Source: an uncultured Holophagales bacterium (GTDB lineage: Bacteria; Acidobacteriota; Thermoanaerobaculia; Multivoradales; UBA5704). From it: a DNA stretch of 64,000 nt. Where the stretch lies: assembly GCA_963741305.1 (NCBI GenBank), contig CAVUHL010000003.1:4403973-4467972 (forward strand), read 5' to 3'. The notes under the pieces are model-generated. The model was given only the letters and a program-made list of their open reading frames with translations. It did not search any database and was not told the origin of the DNA. Both the position numbers and the translations under genes were made by a program. Shown piece by piece: positions 2,534 to 63,318 of the stretch (position 1 is the first letter of the stretch; each line of letters opens with the position of its first letter).

Positions 2534-3142
2534 TCACACGAGGAAGAAGTGCAGGCCCTGCCAGATCCACCAGATCCCGACCAAACGGAAGACCCAGAGC
2601 AGGTTACGGACGCCGAGGAGGAAGAAGTTGTGAACCGGGAAGGGGACGGCCACGGGGGACCGGCCCTGGACAAAAAGGTACCCGAAGGCTGCCAGATTGA
2701 CCGTGATCCCGACGACCAGCTTGAAGAAGGCAGTGACTTCCTCAACCGGCGGCTCCACGCCGAAGGCGGCGGCGGCAAGGGCCGCCAGGAGGAGCAGGAG
2801 GGGAATGAAGATCCCGGCGCGCAAGACCCAGCGCCAGGAATCGAGGAAGGCGAAAAACTTCGCCGCGGGCTGGCGGTGGCCCGGGCAGCACCGGGCTTGG
2901 ATGGAATGCAAATCCAGTGTCTCGGCTCCCTCGGCAGGTGGGACCCGGTTGCACCACACGCACTTCACCGGCAGCACCCGCTCCATGTAAAGCTGGGCGA
3001 GGAGCCGGTGGCCCACCATCAGGACCACGCCCGCGATCAGGCTCGCCCCGATCGGCTCGGGGTGCCGCACGAAGAGGAACAGCACCACGGGGATGAAGAG
3101 GAAGAGCAGCACGCCCGTCGCTTGGACCTTGAGGGGTTGCAC
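2534..3142 (-). CDS. Hypothetical polytopic membrane protein with CxxC/CC motifs
   Basis: Several hydrophobic helices. Motifs CVWC and CCPGH. No family recognised. Confidence 0.4.
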   Translation of the reverse strand: MQPLKVQATGVLLFLFIPVVLFLFVRHPEPIGASLIAGVVLMVGHRLLAQLYMERVLPVKCVWCNRVPPAEGAETLDLHSIQARCCPGHRQPAAKFFAFLDSWRWVLRAGIFIPLLLLLAALAAAAFGVEPPVEEVTAFFKLVVGITVNLAAFGYLFVQGRSPVAVPFPVHNFFLLGVRNLLWVFRLVGIWWIWQGLHFFLV

Positions 3143-3162
3143 GGTGGCGGATTATGGCACGG

Positions 3163-3478
3163 GGATGTACCTGAGTGACTCGGGTGTACATTCCAGCGGC
3201 CCGCGTGTACATCCGAGTGACTCGGGGACGTACCCGAGAGGCTCGGATGTACATCCCAGCGCCTCGCGTGTACAGCCGAGTGACTCAGGGACGCACCCGA
3301 GAGGCTCGGGTATACATTTCAGCGGCTCGGATGTATACCCGAGTGACTCCGATGTACATTCCAGCGGCTCGGGTGTACATCCGAGTGACTCGGGGACGCA
3401 CCTGGGAGGCCCGGATATATATCTCGCGGCTCGGATGTACATCCAAGTGACTCCGGGATCTACCCGAGCGACTCGGGG
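3163..3478. repeat. Tandem array of 15 copies of a 21-bp unit (consensus ~ rTGTACAyCCGAGTGACTCGG), each carrying a 5-bp-stem hairpin
   Basis: Direct reading shows period exactly 21 bp. Units alternate CCGAG-TGA-CTCGG, CCGAG-AGG-CTCGG and CCAGCGGCTCGG hairpins separated by palindromic TGTACA/GTAC. Confidence 0.85.
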
Positions 3479-3537
3479 AAATGACATTCCTGACCCGTTT
3501 TACGTCTCTACAGAGGGTGTTTACAGAAAGGCACCCT

Positions 3538-4476
3538 ATGCGCCCATATGATCAGAGTTACCGTCTTCTCTTCTCCCAACCCCGCATGGTCGAGGATCTC
3601 GTCCGCGGCTTTGCCGGCGAGCCCTGGATTGAGCAACTCGACTTCTCGACGCTGGAGAGGGTCAACGCCTCCTATGTATCGGACACACTGAAGGAACGCG
3701 AGGGCGATGTCGTCTGGCGGCTCCGGCACCGGGACGGGAGCCCGATCTACGTCTACTTCTTGATCGAGTTCCAGTCCGAGGTCCAGAGGTTCATGGCGGT
3801 GCGCCTCCTGGCCTATGTGGCGCTCCTCTACCAGGACCTTCTGGCCCGCAAGGAGCTCACTTCCTCGGGCGAGCTCCCCCTGGTCCTGCCCATCGTCCTC
3901 TACAATGGAGAGGATCGGTGGTGGGCGCCGCTGGAGCTGTCGGAGCTGATCCAGGCTGTGCCCGAAGAGGCGCAGCCTTACGTGCCCCGGTTGCGTTACA
4001 GGCTAATCGACGAGGGGAGCTACTCCCCAGAGGAGTTGGAAGGCCGCAAGAACCTAGCTGCCGCGCTGTTCGGTCTGGAGAAGAGCCACCGGAGGGATGA
4101 CCTCGAGCGATGGTCCGGACGCCTGACCGGCTGGCTGCGAAGACCTGAAGATGCCGGATTGCGTCGCGCCTTCGTCGTCTGGTTCGAAGCCGTTTTCCTG
4201 AACAGCCGCAGTCGGGAGGAGATCCCGGAGGCCCTTGGCCTGGAGGAATTTGAAACCATGCTGGCAAAACGAGTCGTCGAATGGGGTCGGGAGCTACGCG
4301 AGGAGGGGCGGCAGGAAGGGGAAGCCCACCTGCTGCTCCGGCAGCTCGAGACGAGGTTCGGACCTCTCGAAGAGAGGACGCGGACCCGCGTTCTGTCCGC
4401 AGGAGCGGAGCGGCTGCTGGAATGGGGTGAACGCTTCGTATTTGCTGAGCGTCTGACCGACGTCTTCGGAGATTGA
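3538..4476 (+). CDS. Rpn-family (YhgA-like) recombination-promoting nuclease / putative transposase with C-terminal DUF4351-like region
   Basis: The N-terminal motif (M-x-YD...YRLLFSQPRMVEDLV) resembles the Rpn/YhgA N-terminus. C-terminus matches DUF4351 (EGRQEGEAHLLLRQLETRFGPL...RLLEWGERF). Confidence 0.65.
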   Translation: MRPYDQSYRLLFSQPRMVEDLVRGFAGEPWIEQLDFSTLERVNASYVSDTLKEREGDVVWRLRHRDGSPIYVYFLIEFQSEVQRFMAVRLLAYVALLYQDLLARKELTSSGELPLVLPIVLYNGEDRWWAPLELSELIQAVPEEAQPYVPRLRYRLIDEGSYSPEELEGRKNLAAALFGLEKSHRRDDLERWSGRLTGWLRRPEDAGLRRAFVVWFEAVFLNSRSREEIPEALGLEEFETMLAKRVVEWGRELREEGRQEGEAHLLLRQLETRFGPLEERTRTRVLSAGAERLLEWGERFVFAERLTDVFGD

Positions 4477-4749
4477 GCCAAGGAACCCACAATCAGGAAC
4501 TCTCCCTGGCTCGCGGCTTGCATTTCGATAACCGCGAACGATGGCTGTTTCGCACTTGGCGGTGTCCATACGCGGGGAGACGGGAGGAGCACCGGCGGCG
4601 CCGGGCTTTGAGAGGGTCTCCGCCGAGTTCCCTTCCGTTGGGTTCGAGCTGGGAGAGATTGAAAACCTTCCATCCCTCTCGCTCACAGCCGAGGAGTGGG
4701 AGTCTCCTTGTTTCCCCTTCTATGAGTTCGACACCCGCGTGGAGGACAT

Positions 4750-5392
4750 GCCGCGCCTCGATCTTGCCGCGGAGCCCGGACGCCTGCCGGGGATGACCCT
4801 GGAGGTGCTCACCCGCTGCCAGCGGCTGATCGGCCGGCGCAACGCCGCTTCCTCCAACCCGATCTTCGATCTCGTCCTGGACCGGCACCGGTCGCTCCAC
4901 GATCTGGACAAGCCGCTGGTCCGCGCCGATTGGGCCCACGCCCTGGATGTCTGGCAGTGGACGGTCCGCCTCGATCCCGAAGCGGGCTTGGCGGTCCAAC
5001 TCGCGGCGCTCTTCCACGACATCGAGCGGCTGGCCTCCGAGGCCGATACCCGCGTCGAGCACCGGGCCGGCGACTACCAGGCGTTCAAGGACGAGCACGC
5101 CCGGCGCGGGGCCGAGATGGCGGACGGCGTCCTGGAGCAGGCCGGGGTCGACGCGCAGACACGGATGCAGGCGGCCCGGCTGATCGCGGGGCATGAGCGT
5201 ATGCCGGACGTGCTCAACGACGCGGACGCCCTCTCCTTCTTTTCGCTGAACAGCCCCGGGTACGTGGACTACTTCGGACCCGAAGCCGCGCGGCGCAAGA
5301 TCGCCTGGACCCTGGCCCGCCTCCGCCCCGATGCACGGCGACGGCTGGAGGGGGTCCGCCTGCGGCCGGACGTGGCGGAGATGCTCCCATGA
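4750..5392 (+). CDS. DUF4202-family (HD-like) protein
   Basis: HD-like motif LAALFHDIER. Start uncertain; the ORF is open from 4541 and candidate starts lie at 4750 and 4793. Stop overlaps the next gene's start (ATGA at 5389-5392). Confidence 0.5.
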
Positions 5393-18746: not shown

Positions 18747-18829
18747 CCGGGTGGGACGCTCGTGATCGCTGAGGCGCGCGGGGGCCGTCGTTTCGAGCAA
18801 GCGGGAAGATCCTAACAGCACCGAGCCTG

Positions 18830-19098
18830 GCGCGTTGCGTTTGCAGGACGGCACGCTCCGTTTGGAGCCTGACGCGCTGCATTTGGAGCATGGTGCGCTC
18901 CGTTTGGAGAATGGCGCGCTCCGTTTGCAGGATGGCGCGCTGCATTTGGAGCGTGGCGTGCTCCCTTTGTAGGCTGGCGCGCTGCGTTTGGAGCGTGGCA
19001 AGCTGCGTTTGGAGGATGGCGCGCTGCAATTGGAGGATGCCATCCCCCATTTGCCGGATGCCATCCTGCGTTTGCCGGATGCCGCGCCGCAGTGGAGC
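18830..19098. repeat. Degenerate tandem array of ~13 copies of a 21-bp unit (GCGCGCTCCGTTTGGAGnnTG), each unit with a CTCCGTTTGGAG hairpin
   Basis: TTTGGA/TTTGCA recurs at exactly 21-bp spacing for ~270 bp. Lies in the divergent intergenic region between the MFS gene (minus) and the SBP gene (plus). Confidence 0.8.
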
Positions 19099-33039: not shown

Positions 33040-33455
33040 CCGAGGTCCAGCCGCAGCGCGCGAGGATCGAGCTGCAACCGCTCAGGCGTCAGCGAGTGCT
33101 TCCCGGGCGTTAGAGAGTGCCGCTCACGGGTTAGAGCGCTCCGCTCAGGCGTTAGCGAGCTTCGCACACGGGTTAGAGCGCTCCGCTCGGGCTCCAGCGG
33201 CAGTGCCGCGGGCTCGTGCGCGATCCGCTGGGGGTCGAGCGGAGCCGCCCGACCTCGATCACGTTCCGCCGGAGCTCGGGGAGCAACGGCTGGACCCCGA
33301 GTGGCAGCGGCAAGGGGTCGGGCGTAAGCTGCAATCGGTCGAGCGGAACCGCACGAGGTCGAGCAGAGCCGGCTGGAGCCTGGAAGGCAGCGGCTGGGAG
33401 TCGAGGACAAGCCGCCAGGAGTCGAGTGCGGGCCGCTGGAGGTCGAGCGGCAAAA
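33040..33455. repeat. Degenerate ~20-unit tandem array with 21-bp period (subfamilies TTAGAGCGCTCCGCTCAGGCG and GGAGTCGAGnnnnGCCGCTG)
   Basis: 21-bp spacing of TTAGAG (33080-33190) and GTCGAG (33320-33455) blocks. Located immediately 3' of the TIR-WD40-Roc gene. Confidence 0.7.
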
Positions 33456-33456
33456 A

Positions 33457-36400
33457 CTATCGCGTGGGCCTCGCGCTCAGCACGCTATCCCGCCAGCGAC
33501 GCACGCTCATCACGTCGAAGCGCTCCCCCTCGAAGACGATCTGCTTCACGGGTTTCTTGCCGTTGTCGCTGGCGCGCGTCAACCAGTCGCGGATCTCCAT
33601 CCAGCGGACTTCGCCGTCGGAGTTGCGGATCACCAACAGCACGGGGAATGCCTGGTCCATCCAGTAGCGGGCGTGGCGCTCCTTCTTGATCGTGAAGATC
33701 TCTTGACCATCACTTGTCCGCTTGCGTAGGTAGCCCTCACCCGACTTCAGCTGCAGATACAACCGCTGGCCGGTCGCCTCACCAGCATCCGACTTGAATT
33801 CGATCTCCATGTCGATGCCGTGGTCGCTCACGTTGAATTCGCGACTGATCTGCCCAGCCAGCGCAACGGTGGAGATGACATCGCCGACGAGCGCACGCTC
33901 CTTGCTCTCGCTGTCTAGCACGATCGCGGACTGCTCTTGGAGATCATGCACGCGTTGCTTCATCTCCGGGCTGGCAAACAGCTCCTCCAGCTGGTCCCAG
34001 AGAGGAATACGCCTCTCGCAATTCACACAAAGGATGCCCTGCTTACCCTCATCCAGCCTCCTCATCGCCACTTCCCTATTGCCTACAGGTGTGCCGCAAT
34101 TCGGGCAGACATGATGCCTCAGTCGTACTACGTCTACGGCATTCTGGAGCAGATGCTCGTGAACATACTTGCTGAAGATGATCTTCTCCTCCAGCGGAAT
34201 CGTGGGATCGAAGTAGACCTCCAACTCGCCCGCGCCTTCCGCCCGACGGGCCAGCTTCACGCCCAACTGCTTACCGGTGAGCGTTTTGAAGTCGGCGGCG
34301 TAACGCCAGAGTTCGTCCTGTTGGAAAGGTTTAGTGTGATGCAGCCGCACCACGAGCGTAGCGTAGACGTCGTCGAGGAAACCGCTAAACCGGTAGCTCA
34401 CCAGCACCGCCGGATGCCCCACCAACTCCGGGCGTTCGCGCCGGTAATAGCTCGGAAAGACCAGCAATGCACCTTCGCCAGTGTGTTCGCGCAGACAGAG
34501 CCCGCGCTCCACCAGTGTCTGGTGCATGGCCAGTAGGACGAACCGCTCCTCGTCGTCTTTAAGGCGTGCCATGGAAGAGTGGTACGTAAGGTCGCCGCTT
34601 AAGACTCGTTCTTCCGGCAGACAACCTCGTTCGTGTTTATCCTCGCGCATCGTCTGGATCACAGCTTGGGCGTAGGCATTGATGCGTTCCGGCTGCAGTA
34701 GCACCCAGCTGCCGAACTTCAGCTCCCATACCACACCGGGGCCGGCCAGCAGGCTCACCACTGCCTTCAGCTCTTCATCGGTGAATCGCGCACCTTCGCC
34801 GGACAATCGCAGCTGCAGCGTGTCCCGTAGCTCATTGAAGCGCATCAGCGCTCGGCCTGAGTCCTTAAGGTGGATGATCTCCTCCTTGAGCCGCTTGAAG
34901 AGCAGCGGCGAGGAGCGCCACGGAATATCCTCCCACCGGATGCCGTCGAGAATGGCTTGCTTGAGTTCCTCGCAACCGAGGCTGGTCTTGGCGCTGGTTT
35001 CCAGTAGTTGCAGGTAGCCGCGCTCATTTCTGAAAGCTTCGATCTGAGTGCGGCTGACGCGTAGGCCGCCCGCATCCACGCGCCCAGCAACCAGCAGCTT
35101 GGAGAACGCCTTGCGCGAGGCACGGGTGAGATCACGGTCCCACTGGCCAAGCGTCTCGAAGAGATCTTCCTTCTGGCCGTCGAAGACTAGCAACGCCAGC
35201 GCGGTTTCATCCATGTAAAGCTGGTGGATGAGCCGCTGGTCTGCTTGCCCACCGAAATCCCAGAGCCAGATTTCTCGCTCGATGCCGTCGCCTGCAGCCA
35301 CGGGTAGTTTCCACTGCGTCGCCCATGCGCCGACCGTTGAGTCGCTGGGCTGCCATTCTTCGCCCGCCAGAACCTTGGAAAGCCCCGTCTTACCCGCGCC
35401 GCTCTCGCCAACGAGGAGGACTTTGGCATTCGTGTATTGGACCTGAGCAGGCGCCAATGAAAAGGTGGGTGCGGTGGCTCTAGGTGTTCGCGCCTCAGCG
35501 AAAACCTCCGCCAGATTCCACACACGGACACTGCCGATTCGATCGCCGGAAAAGGCGCGGAGTTGGTCGACACTCCATGCCACTTGCTTGACGCTGTCCG
35601 TGTGGCCTTCAAACACGCGCAAACAGCGCCCCGTCTCTATATCCCATAACCTTACTGTCTTGTCTCTAGAACCGGATAGGGCATGGCGATAATCGGCGCT
35701 CCACGCCACACTCAAGACGCCTTGAGTATGGCCTTCGAGCACGCGCAGGCAGCGTCTCGTTGTCACATCCCACAGTCTCACGGTGTTATCAGCAGAGCCC
35801 GAGAGAGCGATACCTCCATCGGCCCTCCACACTACGCTCAAGACATCGCCGCTGTGGCCTTCGAACACGCGCAAGCAGCGTCCCGTTGTCACGTCCCAAA
35901 GTCGCAAGGTGTTATCAGCAGAGCCCGAGAGAGCGTAGCCTTGATCGGCACTCCACGTTAAGCTACGCACCCCCGCAGAGTGGCCTTCAAACTCGCCTAG
36001 GCAGTCCCCCGTCTGCAAGTCCCAAAGCCGCAACATATTATCATTGGATCCGGATAAGGCTTGTAATTTACTCGGGCTCCACGCCAACGTCAAGATGGTG
36101 CCCATGTGACCCTTGAGGATCTGTAGGCAGCGCCCCGACTCCACGTCCCATAGGCGCACGGTTCGGTCTTCTGAACCGGATAGTGCGAAACGTTGATCGG
36201 TGCTCCACGTCAAGCTCCTGACCGGGCGCATGTGGTGATCGAACACGCGCAAACAACGCCCTATTTCCAAATCCCATAGTCGAACTGTATGGTCGTGGGC
36301 ACCAGTGAGCGCATATTTTCCATCCGGATTGAACGCATAGGAACTAATCCCGCCCAGATAGCGAAGCTTAATTTCCTTTTCCTGAAACCGCTCGTCTATT

Positions 36401-36837
36401 ACCAGTGCTGTCAGCGCCGGTCGGCATGCTTCGAGGAGTTTCGCATACTCCTGCTCACCGCCCCAGGGCAACCAGTTGATGTAGGAGGATTGTGCCCGTG
36501 AGTCCTGAATAGGGGCCTTATCGAGTCGCAGGGAAATAAAACGACGCTCCTTGTTCAGTGGGTCGCGGAATCGGAACGTCCCGGCTTCCAACTGTGTCCA
36601 TTCGGACCCTAACGCATTCGCCGACATGCAGAGCACGAGCACGCGGGATTGCTCCAGCCCTTCCTCGATCTTCTTAGCTCGCTGAGCTTTCGTCGTGAGT
36701 AGACTGATCTCCCACTCGTCAAACAACACGCGCAACCCATCCGACCGCAGCCGCTCCGCAATTCCGCGAGCAACCTCCCTATCCTTCGAGCTATGGCTGA
36801 GAAAGACATCAAACTTGAAGTCAGTTGTCGGCGGCAT
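33457..36837 (-). CDS. Multidomain TIR / WD40 propeller / Roc-COR GTPase / Zn-ribbon / PD-(D/E)xK-like (DUF4365-like) protein; candidate NLR/ROCO-like defence protein
   Basis: Domain order, N to C: TIR (aa ~7-135, FDVFLSHSSKD...); seven WD40 blades (aa ~158-445, each ending (V/L)RLWD); Ras-like GTPase (G1 GESGAGKT 475-482, G3 DFGGQ 526-530, G5 SAK 615-617); COR-like region; Cys4 ribbon (CPNC...CVNC, aa 911-940); C-terminal domain with D1009-x-E1011-x-E1013-x-K1015 (IDMEIEFK) nuclease-like motif. RBS GGAGAA. The gene's GC (~55-60%) is well below its neighbours (~68-70%). Confidence 0.85.
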   Translation of the reverse strand: MPPTTDFKFDVFLSHSSKDREVARGIAERLRSDGLRVLFDEWEISLLTTKAQRAKKIEEGLEQSRVLVLCMSANALGSEWTQLEAGTFRFRDPLNKERRFISLRLDKAPIQDSRAQSSYINWLPWGGEQEYAKLLEACRPALTALVIDERFQEKEIKLRYLGGISSYAFNPDGKYALTGAHDHTVRLWDLEIGRCLRVFDHHMRPVRSLTWSTDQRFALSGSEDRTVRLWDVESGRCLQILKGHMGTILTLAWSPSKLQALSGSNDNMLRLWDLQTGDCLGEFEGHSAGVRSLTWSADQGYALSGSADNTLRLWDVTTGRCLRVFEGHSGDVLSVVWRADGGIALSGSADNTVRLWDVTTRRCLRVLEGHTQGVLSVAWSADYRHALSGSRDKTVRLWDIETGRCLRVFEGHTDSVKQVAWSVDQLRAFSGDRIGSVRVWNLAEVFAEARTPRATAPTFSLAPAQVQYTNAKVLLVGESGAGKTGLSKVLAGEEWQPSDSTVGAWATQWKLPVAAGDGIEREIWLWDFGGQADQRLIHQLYMDETALALLVFDGQKEDLFETLGQWDRDLTRASRKAFSKLLVAGRVDAGGLRVSRTQIEAFRNERGYLQLLETSAKTSLGCEELKQAILDGIRWEDIPWRSSPLLFKRLKEEIIHLKDSGRALMRFNELRDTLQLRLSGEGARFTDEELKAVVSLLAGPGVVWELKFGSWVLLQPERINAYAQAVIQTMREDKHERGCLPEERVLSGDLTYHSSMARLKDDEERFVLLAMHQTLVERGLCLREHTGEGALLVFPSYYRRERPELVGHPAVLVSYRFSGFLDDVYATLVVRLHHTKPFQQDELWRYAADFKTLTGKQLGVKLARRAEGAGELEVYFDPTIPLEEKIIFSKYVHEHLLQNAVDVVRLRHHVCPNCGTPVGNREVAMRRLDEGKQGILCVNCERRIPLWDQLEELFASPEMKQRVHDLQEQSAIVLDSESKERALVGDVISTVALAGQISREFNVSDHGIDMEIEFKSDAGEATGQRLYLQLKSGEGYLRKRTSDGQEIFTIKKERHARYWMDQAFPVLLVIRNSDGEVRWMEIRDWLTRASDNGKKPVKQIVFEGERFDVMSVRRWRDSVLSARPTR

Positions 36838-62580: not shown

Positions 62581-63318
62581 GGTCATCCGGGCAGCTGCCC
62601 GGATGACTTGGGCTGCTACCCGGATGACTTGGGCAGTTGCCCGGATGATTTGGGCAGCTGCCCGGATGACTTGGGCAGCTGCCCGGATGATTTGAGCAGT
62701 TGCCCGGATGATTTGGGCAGCTGCCCGGATGACTTGGGCAGCTGCCCGGATGACTTGGGAAGCTGCCCGGATGATTTGGGCAGCCGCCCGGATGACTTGG
62801 GCAGCTGCCCGGATGATTTGGGCAGCTGCCCGGATGACTTGGGCAGCTGCCCGGATGACTTGGGCAGCTACCCGGATGACTTGGGCAGCTGCCCGGATGA
62901 CTTGGGCAGGTGCCCGGATGACTTGGGCAGCTACCCGGATGACTTGGGCAGGTGCCCGGATGATTTGGGCAGCTGCCCGGATGACTTGGGCAGGTGCCCG
63001 GATGACTTGGGCAGGTGCCCGGATGACTTGGGCAGCTGCCCGGATGACTTGGGCAGCTGCCCGGATGACTTGGGCAGCTGCCCGGATGACTTGGGCAGCT
63101 ACCCGGATGACTTGGGCAGCTACCCGGATGACTTGGGCAGCTACCCGGATGACTTGGGCAGCTACCCGGATGACTTGGGCAGCTACCCGGATGACTTGGG
63201 CAGCTGCCCAGATGACTTGGGCAGCTGCCCGGATCATCCGGGAAGGTTCCCGAATCGTCCGGGCAACCCCTAAAACTTTTTAGGCAACTTCCCGGGTCGT
63301 CCGGGCAACTGCCCGTAC
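62581..63318. repeat. Near-perfect tandem array of ~34 copies of the 21-bp unit GGCAGCTGCCCGGATGACTTG; each unit forms a GCTGCCC/GGGCAGC hairpin
   Basis: Exact 21-bp period over ~660 bp. Only sporadic point variants (GAC/GAT, AGC/AGT/AGG, TGC/TAC/CGC). Degenerate tail at 63240-63318 ends in CCTAAAACTTTTTAGG. Confidence 0.95.

Follow-up and report, generated by a model that had tools for sequence, protein, structure and literature searches.

The parC centromere of plasmid pSK41 is built of 20-bp tandem repeats, R6K carries 22-bp iterons, and MIRU (mycobacterial interspersed repetitive unit)-type variable-number tandem repeat (VNTR) loci are intergenic minisatellites of bacteria. The parC centromere repeats of plasmids pSK41 and R1 are bound cooperatively by small dimeric ParR proteins (PMC5016525), and in Thauera sp. 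MZ1T short repetitive extragenic palindromes (REPs) of the GTAG-1 type are reiterated in tandem (Di Nocera et al., 2013, PMC3733652). Here we describe a tandem array of palindromic 21-bp units at positions 3164-3478 of a 64,000-nucleotide stretch of genomic DNA from an uncultured Holophagales bacterium (contig CAVUHL010000003.1; the whole stretch is called the window below), where it lies between a gene for a membrane-like protein and a gene for an Rpn/YhgA-like protein. The array belongs to a very abundant class of non-coding, dyad-symmetric tandem arrays with units of 21 bp (sometimes 20 bp) in soil Acidobacteriota (Thermoanaerobaculia). A full-text literature search returned no description of such arrays in Acidobacteriota, and the class of 21-base palindromic tandem arrays is apparently undescribed.

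Like plasmid centromeres and iterons, these arrays consist of tandem direct repeats set at whole helical turns and containing dyad elements, and a subset of the class stands beside genes for small coiled-coil proteins in a fixed geometry, as in centromere-binder pairs. They differ from centromeres and iterons in that hundreds of arrays occur per chromosome, in that BLAST with the 3164-3478 array found no match in plasmid and phage collections, on which ground we rejected a plasmid or phage origin, and in that no binder gene adjoins either the array itself (its neighbours encode the membrane protein and the Rpn protein) or the 21 loci of its sequence family, where no search was aimed at ParM, ParA or Rep genes. 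With MIRU-type and other VNTR loci they share the occurrence of many intergenic tandem arrays, the higher-order blocks and the speed with which arrays are gained, lost and turned over among close relatives, but here the units are palindromic and orientation-independent, one period dominates the genome and a size of about 10 units is preferred. CRISPR loci also have regularly spaced short palindromic repeats; in contrast to them, the present array has no unique spacers, since the whole 21-bp unit is repeated, spacer included, and its class is dispersed at hundreds of loci. As in REPs, bacterial interspersed mosaic elements (BIMEs) and the Thauera GTAG-1 repeats, short GC-rich extragenic palindromes with stems of 5-6 bp form dispersed, lineage-specific families that sometimes stand in tandem beside genes, and some arrays of the 3164-3478 family carry a GTAG-like tag. 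Unlike REPs and BIMEs, they form strict head-to-tail arrays of 10-15 units, dozens of unrelated families keep to a single period of 21 or 20 bp, the tag varies and no REP-associated tyrosine transposase (RAYT) is associated with them; the REPs that flank RAYT genes in the same genome (G000) form no such arrays. An earlier annotation made from the letters alone (the sequence-only reading) had set the array apart from both CRISPR and REP elements; it is indeed not a CRISPR locus, and it differs from the classic REPs of G000.

The array and its genome-wide class

When the array was laid out in rows of 21 bp, 15 head-to-tail units were found across 3164-3478, 14 of them 21 bp long and one (3416-3435) 20 bp long, in good agreement with the 15 tandem 21-bp units that the sequence-only reading had placed at 3163-3478. 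Tandem Repeats Finder (TRF) reported periods of 21 (10.6 copies), 42, 63 (84% matches) and 105 bp (85% matches) over 3160-3455, and its cleanest rows were those of 63 and 105 bp (84-85% matches). The identity at a lag of 21 nt is 0.57, as compared to 0.26 +/- 0.026 (maximum 0.35) in 1000 shuffles, and the array, which is assigned to neither strand, matches its own reverse complement at an E value of 1.5e-18.

Each unit is built of a 7-nt spacer followed by a dyad core, CCGAG-N3-CTCGG; the dyad takes up 13-15 bp (a stem of 5-6 bp and a 3-nt centre) of the 21 bp and is shorter than typical REPs, which are imperfect palindromes of 20-40 bp, but resembles the Thauera GTAG-1 repeats in length. Two alternating hairpin types had been described for the array. 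The row layout instead resolves three subtypes: A (TGTACAT + CCGAG-TGA-CTCGG), B (GACGYAC + CCGAG-AGG-CTCGG) and C (TGTACAT + TCCAG-CGG-CTCGG, a poorer hairpin), which follow each other in the order A C A B C A B C A C A B C A A'. The TGTACA palindromes that were said to separate the hairpins are present as seven exact copies; the remaining spacers are variants of TGTACA, for example GACGYAC in subtype B. The blocks of A, C and B units explain the higher-order period of 63 bp, and the 63- and 105-bp blocks point to growth through duplication of multi-unit blocks, a signature of slippage or unequal exchange.

Several reading frames are open through the array, and 21 bp corresponds to seven codons, as expected for a coding heptad repeat. 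The open reading frames (ORFs) through the array have codon log-odds of -7 to -31 and a GC content at third codon positions (GC3) of 0.60-0.62 (about 0.61 in every open frame), as compared to +85 and 0.88 for the neighbouring membrane gene, and a Pfam search of these ORFs found no family above threshold. Period-20 arrays, which are unable to encode heptads, occur in the same class. Negative codon log-odds, low GC3 and the period-20 arrays together led us to reject a coding heptad repeat. A structured RNA gene would be suggested by the folding of the RNA, since the folding energies of the two strands (-180 and -167 kcal/mol) are far below those of shuffles (z = -9.4 and -10.2). However, the two strands fold about equally well, as a DNA palindrome would. 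Pairing of the 6-bp stem within the unit is seen in 81% of plus-strand cells and 75% of minus-strand cells. No covariation of stem pairs beyond that of shuffles was found in the array, and the Rfam search gave no family, the best hits, to models of eukaryotic miRNAs, reaching 21-23 bits where the gathering scores are 69-90. A structured RNA or leader was rejected on the Rfam null, the equal folding of both strands and the covariation null, and we regard a coding or RNA-gene origin of the array as next to negligible in probability. The same three results give no support to a role as a 5' leader, the sequence-only reading having placed the array in the 5' leader/promoter region of the Rpn gene. 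A strict sigma-70 promoter scan of 3050-3620 detected no promoter, and no terminator was found inside the array. The array is non-coding and symmetric on both strands.

The host genome (8.83 Mb, 66.6% GC) belongs to a lineage of Thermoanaerobaculia known from soil metagenome-assembled genomes (MAGs). Genome-wide TRF analysis found 456 clusters with a fundamental period of 21 bp (65 kb in total), followed by the next commonest period, 9 bp, with 119. Among arrays of at least 100 bp, 201 have a period of 21 bp, 26 of 20 bp and 11 of 42 bp, and every other period is represented by at most eight. The genome-wide comparison of periods named by the sequence-only reading thus gave a strong excess at 21 bp (456 clusters against at most 119), where unrelated periods in similar numbers would have spoken against its proposal. 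Unit-to-unit distances inside arrays are also narrowly distributed (21 bp, n = 711; 20 bp, n = 58; 22 bp, n = 12). The arrays fall into about 77 sequence clusters, some 25 of them with several members, and perfect stems of at least 6 bp are present in 20% of array consensus units as compared to 4% of shuffled units. A strict period of about two helical turns in hundreds of arrays of unrelated sequence points to a common generating or selection mechanism, as had been proposed from four arrays of the window.

The majority of the long arrays (156 out of 201) lie outside gene calls. These came from a crude codon-usage gene finder, which misses genes (its calls cover 81% of the main chromosome contig) and lets some ORFs run on through arrays. 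Gaps between convergent genes are somewhat enriched for arrays (49/156, against 21% of background gaps) and gaps between divergent genes are depleted (30/156, against 26%), and the orientation of an array is independent of the direction of the flanking genes. The distribution of array lengths has two modes, the second at 180-240 bp, or about 10-11 units. Samples of 200 kb from each of four relatives were analysed in the same way: long 20-bp arrays are present in a congener and 21/22-bp arrays in two further genera of the same taxonomic family, and the sample from a genome of another family of the same order has no such arrays. Most of the relatives are fragmented MAGs, so that repeats may be incompletely assembled in them and assembly may account for some of the synteny breaks at arrays. 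The best explanation of these observations is that Thermoanaerobaculia genomes of this taxonomic family carry the class in hundreds of copies.

The sequence family, the orthologous site and the case for a docking lattice

By sequence the 3164-3478 array clusters with six others in the G000 genome, where the family occupies about 8-10 loci. BLAST with the array gave matches in five out of 10 congeneric genomes, at up to about 20 places each and with up to 21-23 matches, so that the family is present in G000, G001, G003, G006, G007 and G008. It was not found by BLAST in the congeners G002, G004, G005, G009 and G010, and 50 genomes of other genera gave no match. On this evidence the sequence family is restricted to its genus. 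An alignment of the consensus units of 24 arrays from six species, together with two consensus units of the orthologous G003 array, shows a strongly conserved dyad core, CCGAG-YGA-CTCGG(G), and a 7-nt spacer that varies between arrays (TGTACAT, GATGCAC, GATTTAC, GATATAC; GTAGATC on the other strand). Subtypes B and C are each found elsewhere as homogeneous arrays. The flanks of the seven family arrays in G000 share no common gene and no common DNA beyond degenerate array edges. We also searched for single-copy cores that could serve as an operator upstream of a regulator gene; the loose pattern mostly gave chance matches in coding sequence and no convincing candidate, and the idea was dropped. 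In a side observation, a 20-kb region with few gene calls (G000 C3:328900-348400) holds several small arrays and single exact CCGAGTGACTCGG cores of the family, and a further 21-bp array lies there at C3:338523-338758.

The history of the array can be followed at its own site. About 14 species show the ancestral arrangement, in which the membrane gene and a homologue of the gene at 4541-5392 are direct, divergent neighbours and neither the Rpn gene nor the array is present; orthologues of the membrane gene without the array occur in about 25 species. The Rpn cassette is found at the site in G000, G003 and G007 only, and the array only in G000 and its closest relative G003. The membrane gene of G003 is 92.2% identical to that of G000 at the DNA level and that of G007 88.5%, and the pairwise identities give the topology ((G000, G003), G007); therefore one gain or one loss explains the array pattern. 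G007 has an exact empty site, in which host GGATT-ATG is joined directly to the ACATT of the leader. An ambiguous 3-bp ATG repeat stands at both ends of the insert, which is explained as well by an insertion that made a tiny duplication as by a microhomology deletion. The comparison of relatives marks the Rpn cassette and the array as recent additions to an ancestral intergenic region, and the alignments place the apparent origin of the array at the junction of the host promoter and the incoming Rpn cassette.

At the identical site G003 carries about 19 units, an array too diverged for a BLAST match with that of G000; the 21- and 63-bp periods are kept. Its unit has been remodelled: GTAC and GAGYGACTC are 4 nt closer to each other, and the rest of the unit is longer by an equal amount. 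As judged from these alignments, turnover of the array sequence has been much faster than that of the flanking genes, but its period remained 21 bp. At another, orthologous intergenic site (G000 C3:249184-249372), 21-bp arrays of three different unit sequences are found in three congeners (G000, G008 and G003), either by replacement inside a persisting array or by repeated insertion at a hot spot.

Elsewhere in the class, arrays have recurrent neighbours. Six paralogous small-protein families (F1-F6) are enriched beside 20/21-bp arrays in a fixed geometry, each member standing next to a different array sequence (for example G000 C3:5472284-5472733, C3:1205027-1205530 and C3:3779842-3780279). 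For F1 (149 aa), an array is near 12 out of 32 members, and in 11 of these cases it lies 58-405 bp downstream, mostly at 58-150 bp; for F2 (167 aa) the number is seven out of 13, all with the array 85-454 bp upstream; and for F3 (145 aa) it is five out of six. The F1-F6 proteins have no Pfam match above threshold. Several of the families have coiled-coil N-termini, and by eye some C-termini look winged-helix-like.

Our preferred reading, in which we place roughly even confidence, is that the 3164-3478 array is a fast-evolving minisatellite acting at the DNA level, whose dyad lattice would dock a factor encoded elsewhere. The array would act, if at all, as DNA. A conserved dyad every two helical turns would put all sites on one face of the helix, and a dimeric DNA-binding factor, encoded elsewhere in the genome, could dock on a lattice of such phased sites. 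Effects on the flanking genes would be incidental, namely that the divergent promoters are pushed 315 bp apart and the -35 region of the membrane gene is replaced. Docking is favoured because the 21-bp period is held tightly across about 77 unrelated sequence clusters, because it was kept through the remodelling of the G003 unit, because the family alignment shows a conserved dyad core beside a freely varying spacer, and because arrays have a preferred size of about 10-11 units. Within the class it is favoured further because six small-protein families are enriched beside arrays.

The main rival is a selfish or neutral minisatellite, in which a hairpin unit was seeded or inserted and then multiplied by slippage and unequal exchange, the period being inherited from an ancestral array type, with no binder and no function. 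We consider it possible but somewhat unlikely. The higher-order 63/105-bp blocks, the fast turnover between orthologous arrays, the different unit sequences that three species have at one orthologous site and the exact empty site in G007 are all in line with it, as are the lack of any gene-class association of the 3164-3478 family, with no partner at 21 loci, and the distribution of arrays, which are commoner than background between convergent genes and rarer between divergent ones. A pair of 313-bp arrays with 90% identity at unrelated loci also fits. What such a repeat alone leaves unexplained is the skew of unit distances towards 21 bp, the G003 unit that was remodelled and yet kept its period, the conservation of the dyad across species beside a variable spacer, the second length mode at about 10 units, and the enrichment of small-protein families beside other arrays.

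Several points weigh against docking. None of the F1-F6 families stands beside any of the 21 family loci examined in six species, and no gene is common to the flanks of the seven family arrays in G000. The array is dispensable, being absent in G007 and in all more distant relatives. Rapid turnover, presence or absence among close relatives, convergent enrichment and divergent depletion are just as compatible with a selfish or neutral repeat. Conservation of the hairpin core would likewise be expected if the core were recognised by an enzyme and not by a structural binder.

A wider form of the docking idea is that the class consists of many matched pairs: about 70 paralogous small DNA-binding proteins in G000, each recognising its own palindromic two-turn lattice family (about 77 clusters), would form segrosome-like or chromatin-organising filaments, the 3164-3478 array would be an orphan lattice bound in trans, and the 21-bp period and the size of about 10-15 units would be under selection. 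We put this forward as tentative and judge it unlikely.

The Rpn gene, the membrane gene and the cassette end

The array fills the entire gap between the divergent membrane-protein gene (2534-3142, minus strand) and the Rpn gene. The membrane-like protein has 202 aa; its gene is well supported by codon usage (log-odds +84.6, GC3 0.88) and has no Pfam match. Orthologues are found in 20 out of 31 relatives and at 27 loci of Thermoanaerobaculia MAGs. Eight nt upstream of its GTG start, CATAAT at 3151-3156 (minus strand, from direct reading of the sequence) is a possible -10 box; if it is real, the membrane-gene mRNA might lack a leader, and the -35 position would be taken by the first array unit. 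In G007, which has no array at the site, the corresponding ATTATG (CATAAT on the minus strand) directly abuts the Rpn cassette or leader.

On the other side, an Rpn/YhgA-like PD-(D/E)xK protein of 312 aa is encoded at 3538-4476 on the plus strand (PF04754, E = 2.2e-32, plus DUF4351). The ATG at 3538, some 60 bp past the array, is the likely start codon, and the N-terminus MRPYDQSYRLLF is conserved in relatives; the position upstream of an Rpn-family gene reported by the sequence-only reading is therefore correct. Between array and gene lies a conserved leader (3479-3537, plus strand), recognised by BLAST against the genome and the Rpn loci, which forms the left end of the Rpn cassette: homology to the paralogous Rpn locus of G006 begins exactly at 3479. 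The first 35 nt of the leader (3479-3513) constitute a 33-35-nt motif, AATGACATTYCNGACCCGTTTTMCGTCTCTAC, that occurs at six other sites in the G000 genome (on C3, near 3946029(-), 4232448(+), 5275860(+), 5847512(+), 1607500(-) and 3195934(-)). The motif precedes unrelated genes, whose start codons follow after 10-60 nt; among them are the Rpn gene, genes for two proteins of 306-312 aa with weak Y1_Tnp matches and several small ORFs. None of the six other sites is adjoined by a 21-bp array. The AATGACATTYCNGACCCGTTTTMCGTCTCTAC motif may be a shared promoter or leader, or a cassette end.

This arrangement raises the alternative that the array is a locus-specific control region, an operator, an iteron or a 5' leader, of the Rpn gene or the membrane gene. 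The array lies directly upstream of both genes, it is present only in genomes with the Rpn cassette at the site, and a second Rpn locus in G000, which has only five PF04754 loci, carries a short 21-bp array about 40 bp upstream. In related genomes, however, three out of 28 Rpn loci have an array of at least five copies within 650 bp upstream, as compared to a background of 3.6% of genes, and the enrichment is not significant (P about 0.08). The closest Rpn paralogue (in G006, 83% identical at the amino acid level and with the same leader) has no array. A PF04754 search in five genomes of genus g7 gave no match, and one of them, G016, a member of the same taxonomic family, has 21-bp arrays. Other arrays of the 3164-3478 family adjoin unrelated genes, in about 25 species the membrane-gene orthologue functions with no array beside it, and no Rfam match, strand asymmetry or covariation was found. 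The Rpn cassette is decaying in two of the three carrier genomes, because the Rpn gene of G003 (L013:2131-3079) has a frameshift near residue 200 and that of G007 (L014:4600-5325) is dead, having lost its start codon and residues of about 27-101.

On these grounds (the non-significant enrichment, the array-free paralogue, the arrays in G016, which gave no PF04754 match, and the unrelated neighbours elsewhere) we rejected Rpn as the partner of the array. A control role specific to this locus is highly improbable, and the array is not a control region built for the neighbouring Rpn gene. A special tie to the Rpn gene is not supported. The sequence-only reading had proposed a test of whether arrays are enriched near particular gene classes: at Rpn loci the enrichment is not significant, and six small-protein families are enriched beside arrays of the class.

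Transposases, other repeats of the window and significance

We also considered that the array could be an REP-type element, in which palindromes are spread and clustered by a RAYT, as in BIMEs or the tandem GTAG-1 REPs of Thauera. Its units are short GC-rich extragenic palindromes present at many loci, GTAG stands next to the stem in the spacer of some family arrays of G001 and G008, and tandemly reiterated REPs are on record (Di Nocera et al., 2013, PMC3733652). The G000 genome has five strong Y1_Tnp (RAYT-like) matches, and four of these genes (C3:3639006, C3:2994296, C3:2320407 and C1:14449) are flanked on both sides by their own REPs of 18-26 bp. Two of the RAYT-flanking REPs have 34-37 genomic copies each, but the copies are irregularly spaced (36-124 bp) and lie outside 21-bp arrays. 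The core of the 3164-3478 family was not found beside any of the five Y1 genes in G000, and the palindromes that flank four of them are all of other sequence. The RAYT gene at C3:2320407 is flanked by a palindrome related to the core of another array family, that of 62589-63234, with a spacing of 40-62 bp. The REP tag position is variable: it reads GTAC in the present array and GTGC, GTAA, GTAT, GTGG or GTAG in other arrays of the family. The number of sequence clusters (about 77) also contrasts with that of RAYT-like genes (five). We therefore find an REP-type origin decidedly unlikely.

A different transposase is found near arrays. Five out of six copies of one IS3-type transposase (rve + HTH_21; for example G000 C3:3080413-3081258) adjoin 20/21-bp arrays, including arrays of the 62589-63234 family, which suggests that an IS3-family element targets the arrays. 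A general model of miniature inverted-repeat transposable elements was rejected: inverted repeats between the flanks of 183 arrays are no longer than those of controls, there is no excess of terminal inverted repeats (TIRs), and only one small subfamily has an 11-bp TIR. This subfamily is an element of about 313 bp, present in two copies with 90% identity at unrelated loci (G000 C3:595350-595660 and C3:1108120-1108430). It consists of a 21-bp array with a ACCCGCGGGTT core and an 11-bp TIR, CTGGAGCCTCC; a third copy with the TIR CTGGAGCCTCC lies near G000 C3:1618852. The presence of this element at two unrelated loci means that whole arrays can be copied.

The sequence-only reading had listed three further 21-bp arrays in the window, and all of them are real by TRF. 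The second array (18823-19083) differs in sequence from that at 3164-3478 and belongs by clustering to a five-member family in this genome. The third is a degenerate region of 21-bp period at 33040-33455, as read from the sequence, of which TRF scores only 33106-33192. The fourth (62589-63234) has 30.8 copies with 93% identity and a core that is a perfect palindrome of 12 bp; its family comprises 14 arrays of up to 1.1 kb in the G000 genome. None of the three is assigned to a strand. A tandem repeat of 126 bp (2.1-2.4 copies, 80-82% matches) was also seen at 35692-36033 of the window, within a minus-strand ORF at 33457-36837.

For annotators, these results mean that spurious ORFs are to be expected through such arrays, and that gene-neighbourhood arguments such as the Rpn link should be discounted for them. 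For the biology of the organism, one period of two helical turns dominates the tandem repeats of an 8.8-Mb genome and is kept while the palindromic sequences change quickly between species. If the arrays are selfish, they would represent a new kind of bacterial satellite DNA with length-measuring amplification. If they are docking lattices, they would add a new layer to the organisation or regulation of the chromosome in a major, uncultured group of soil bacteria.

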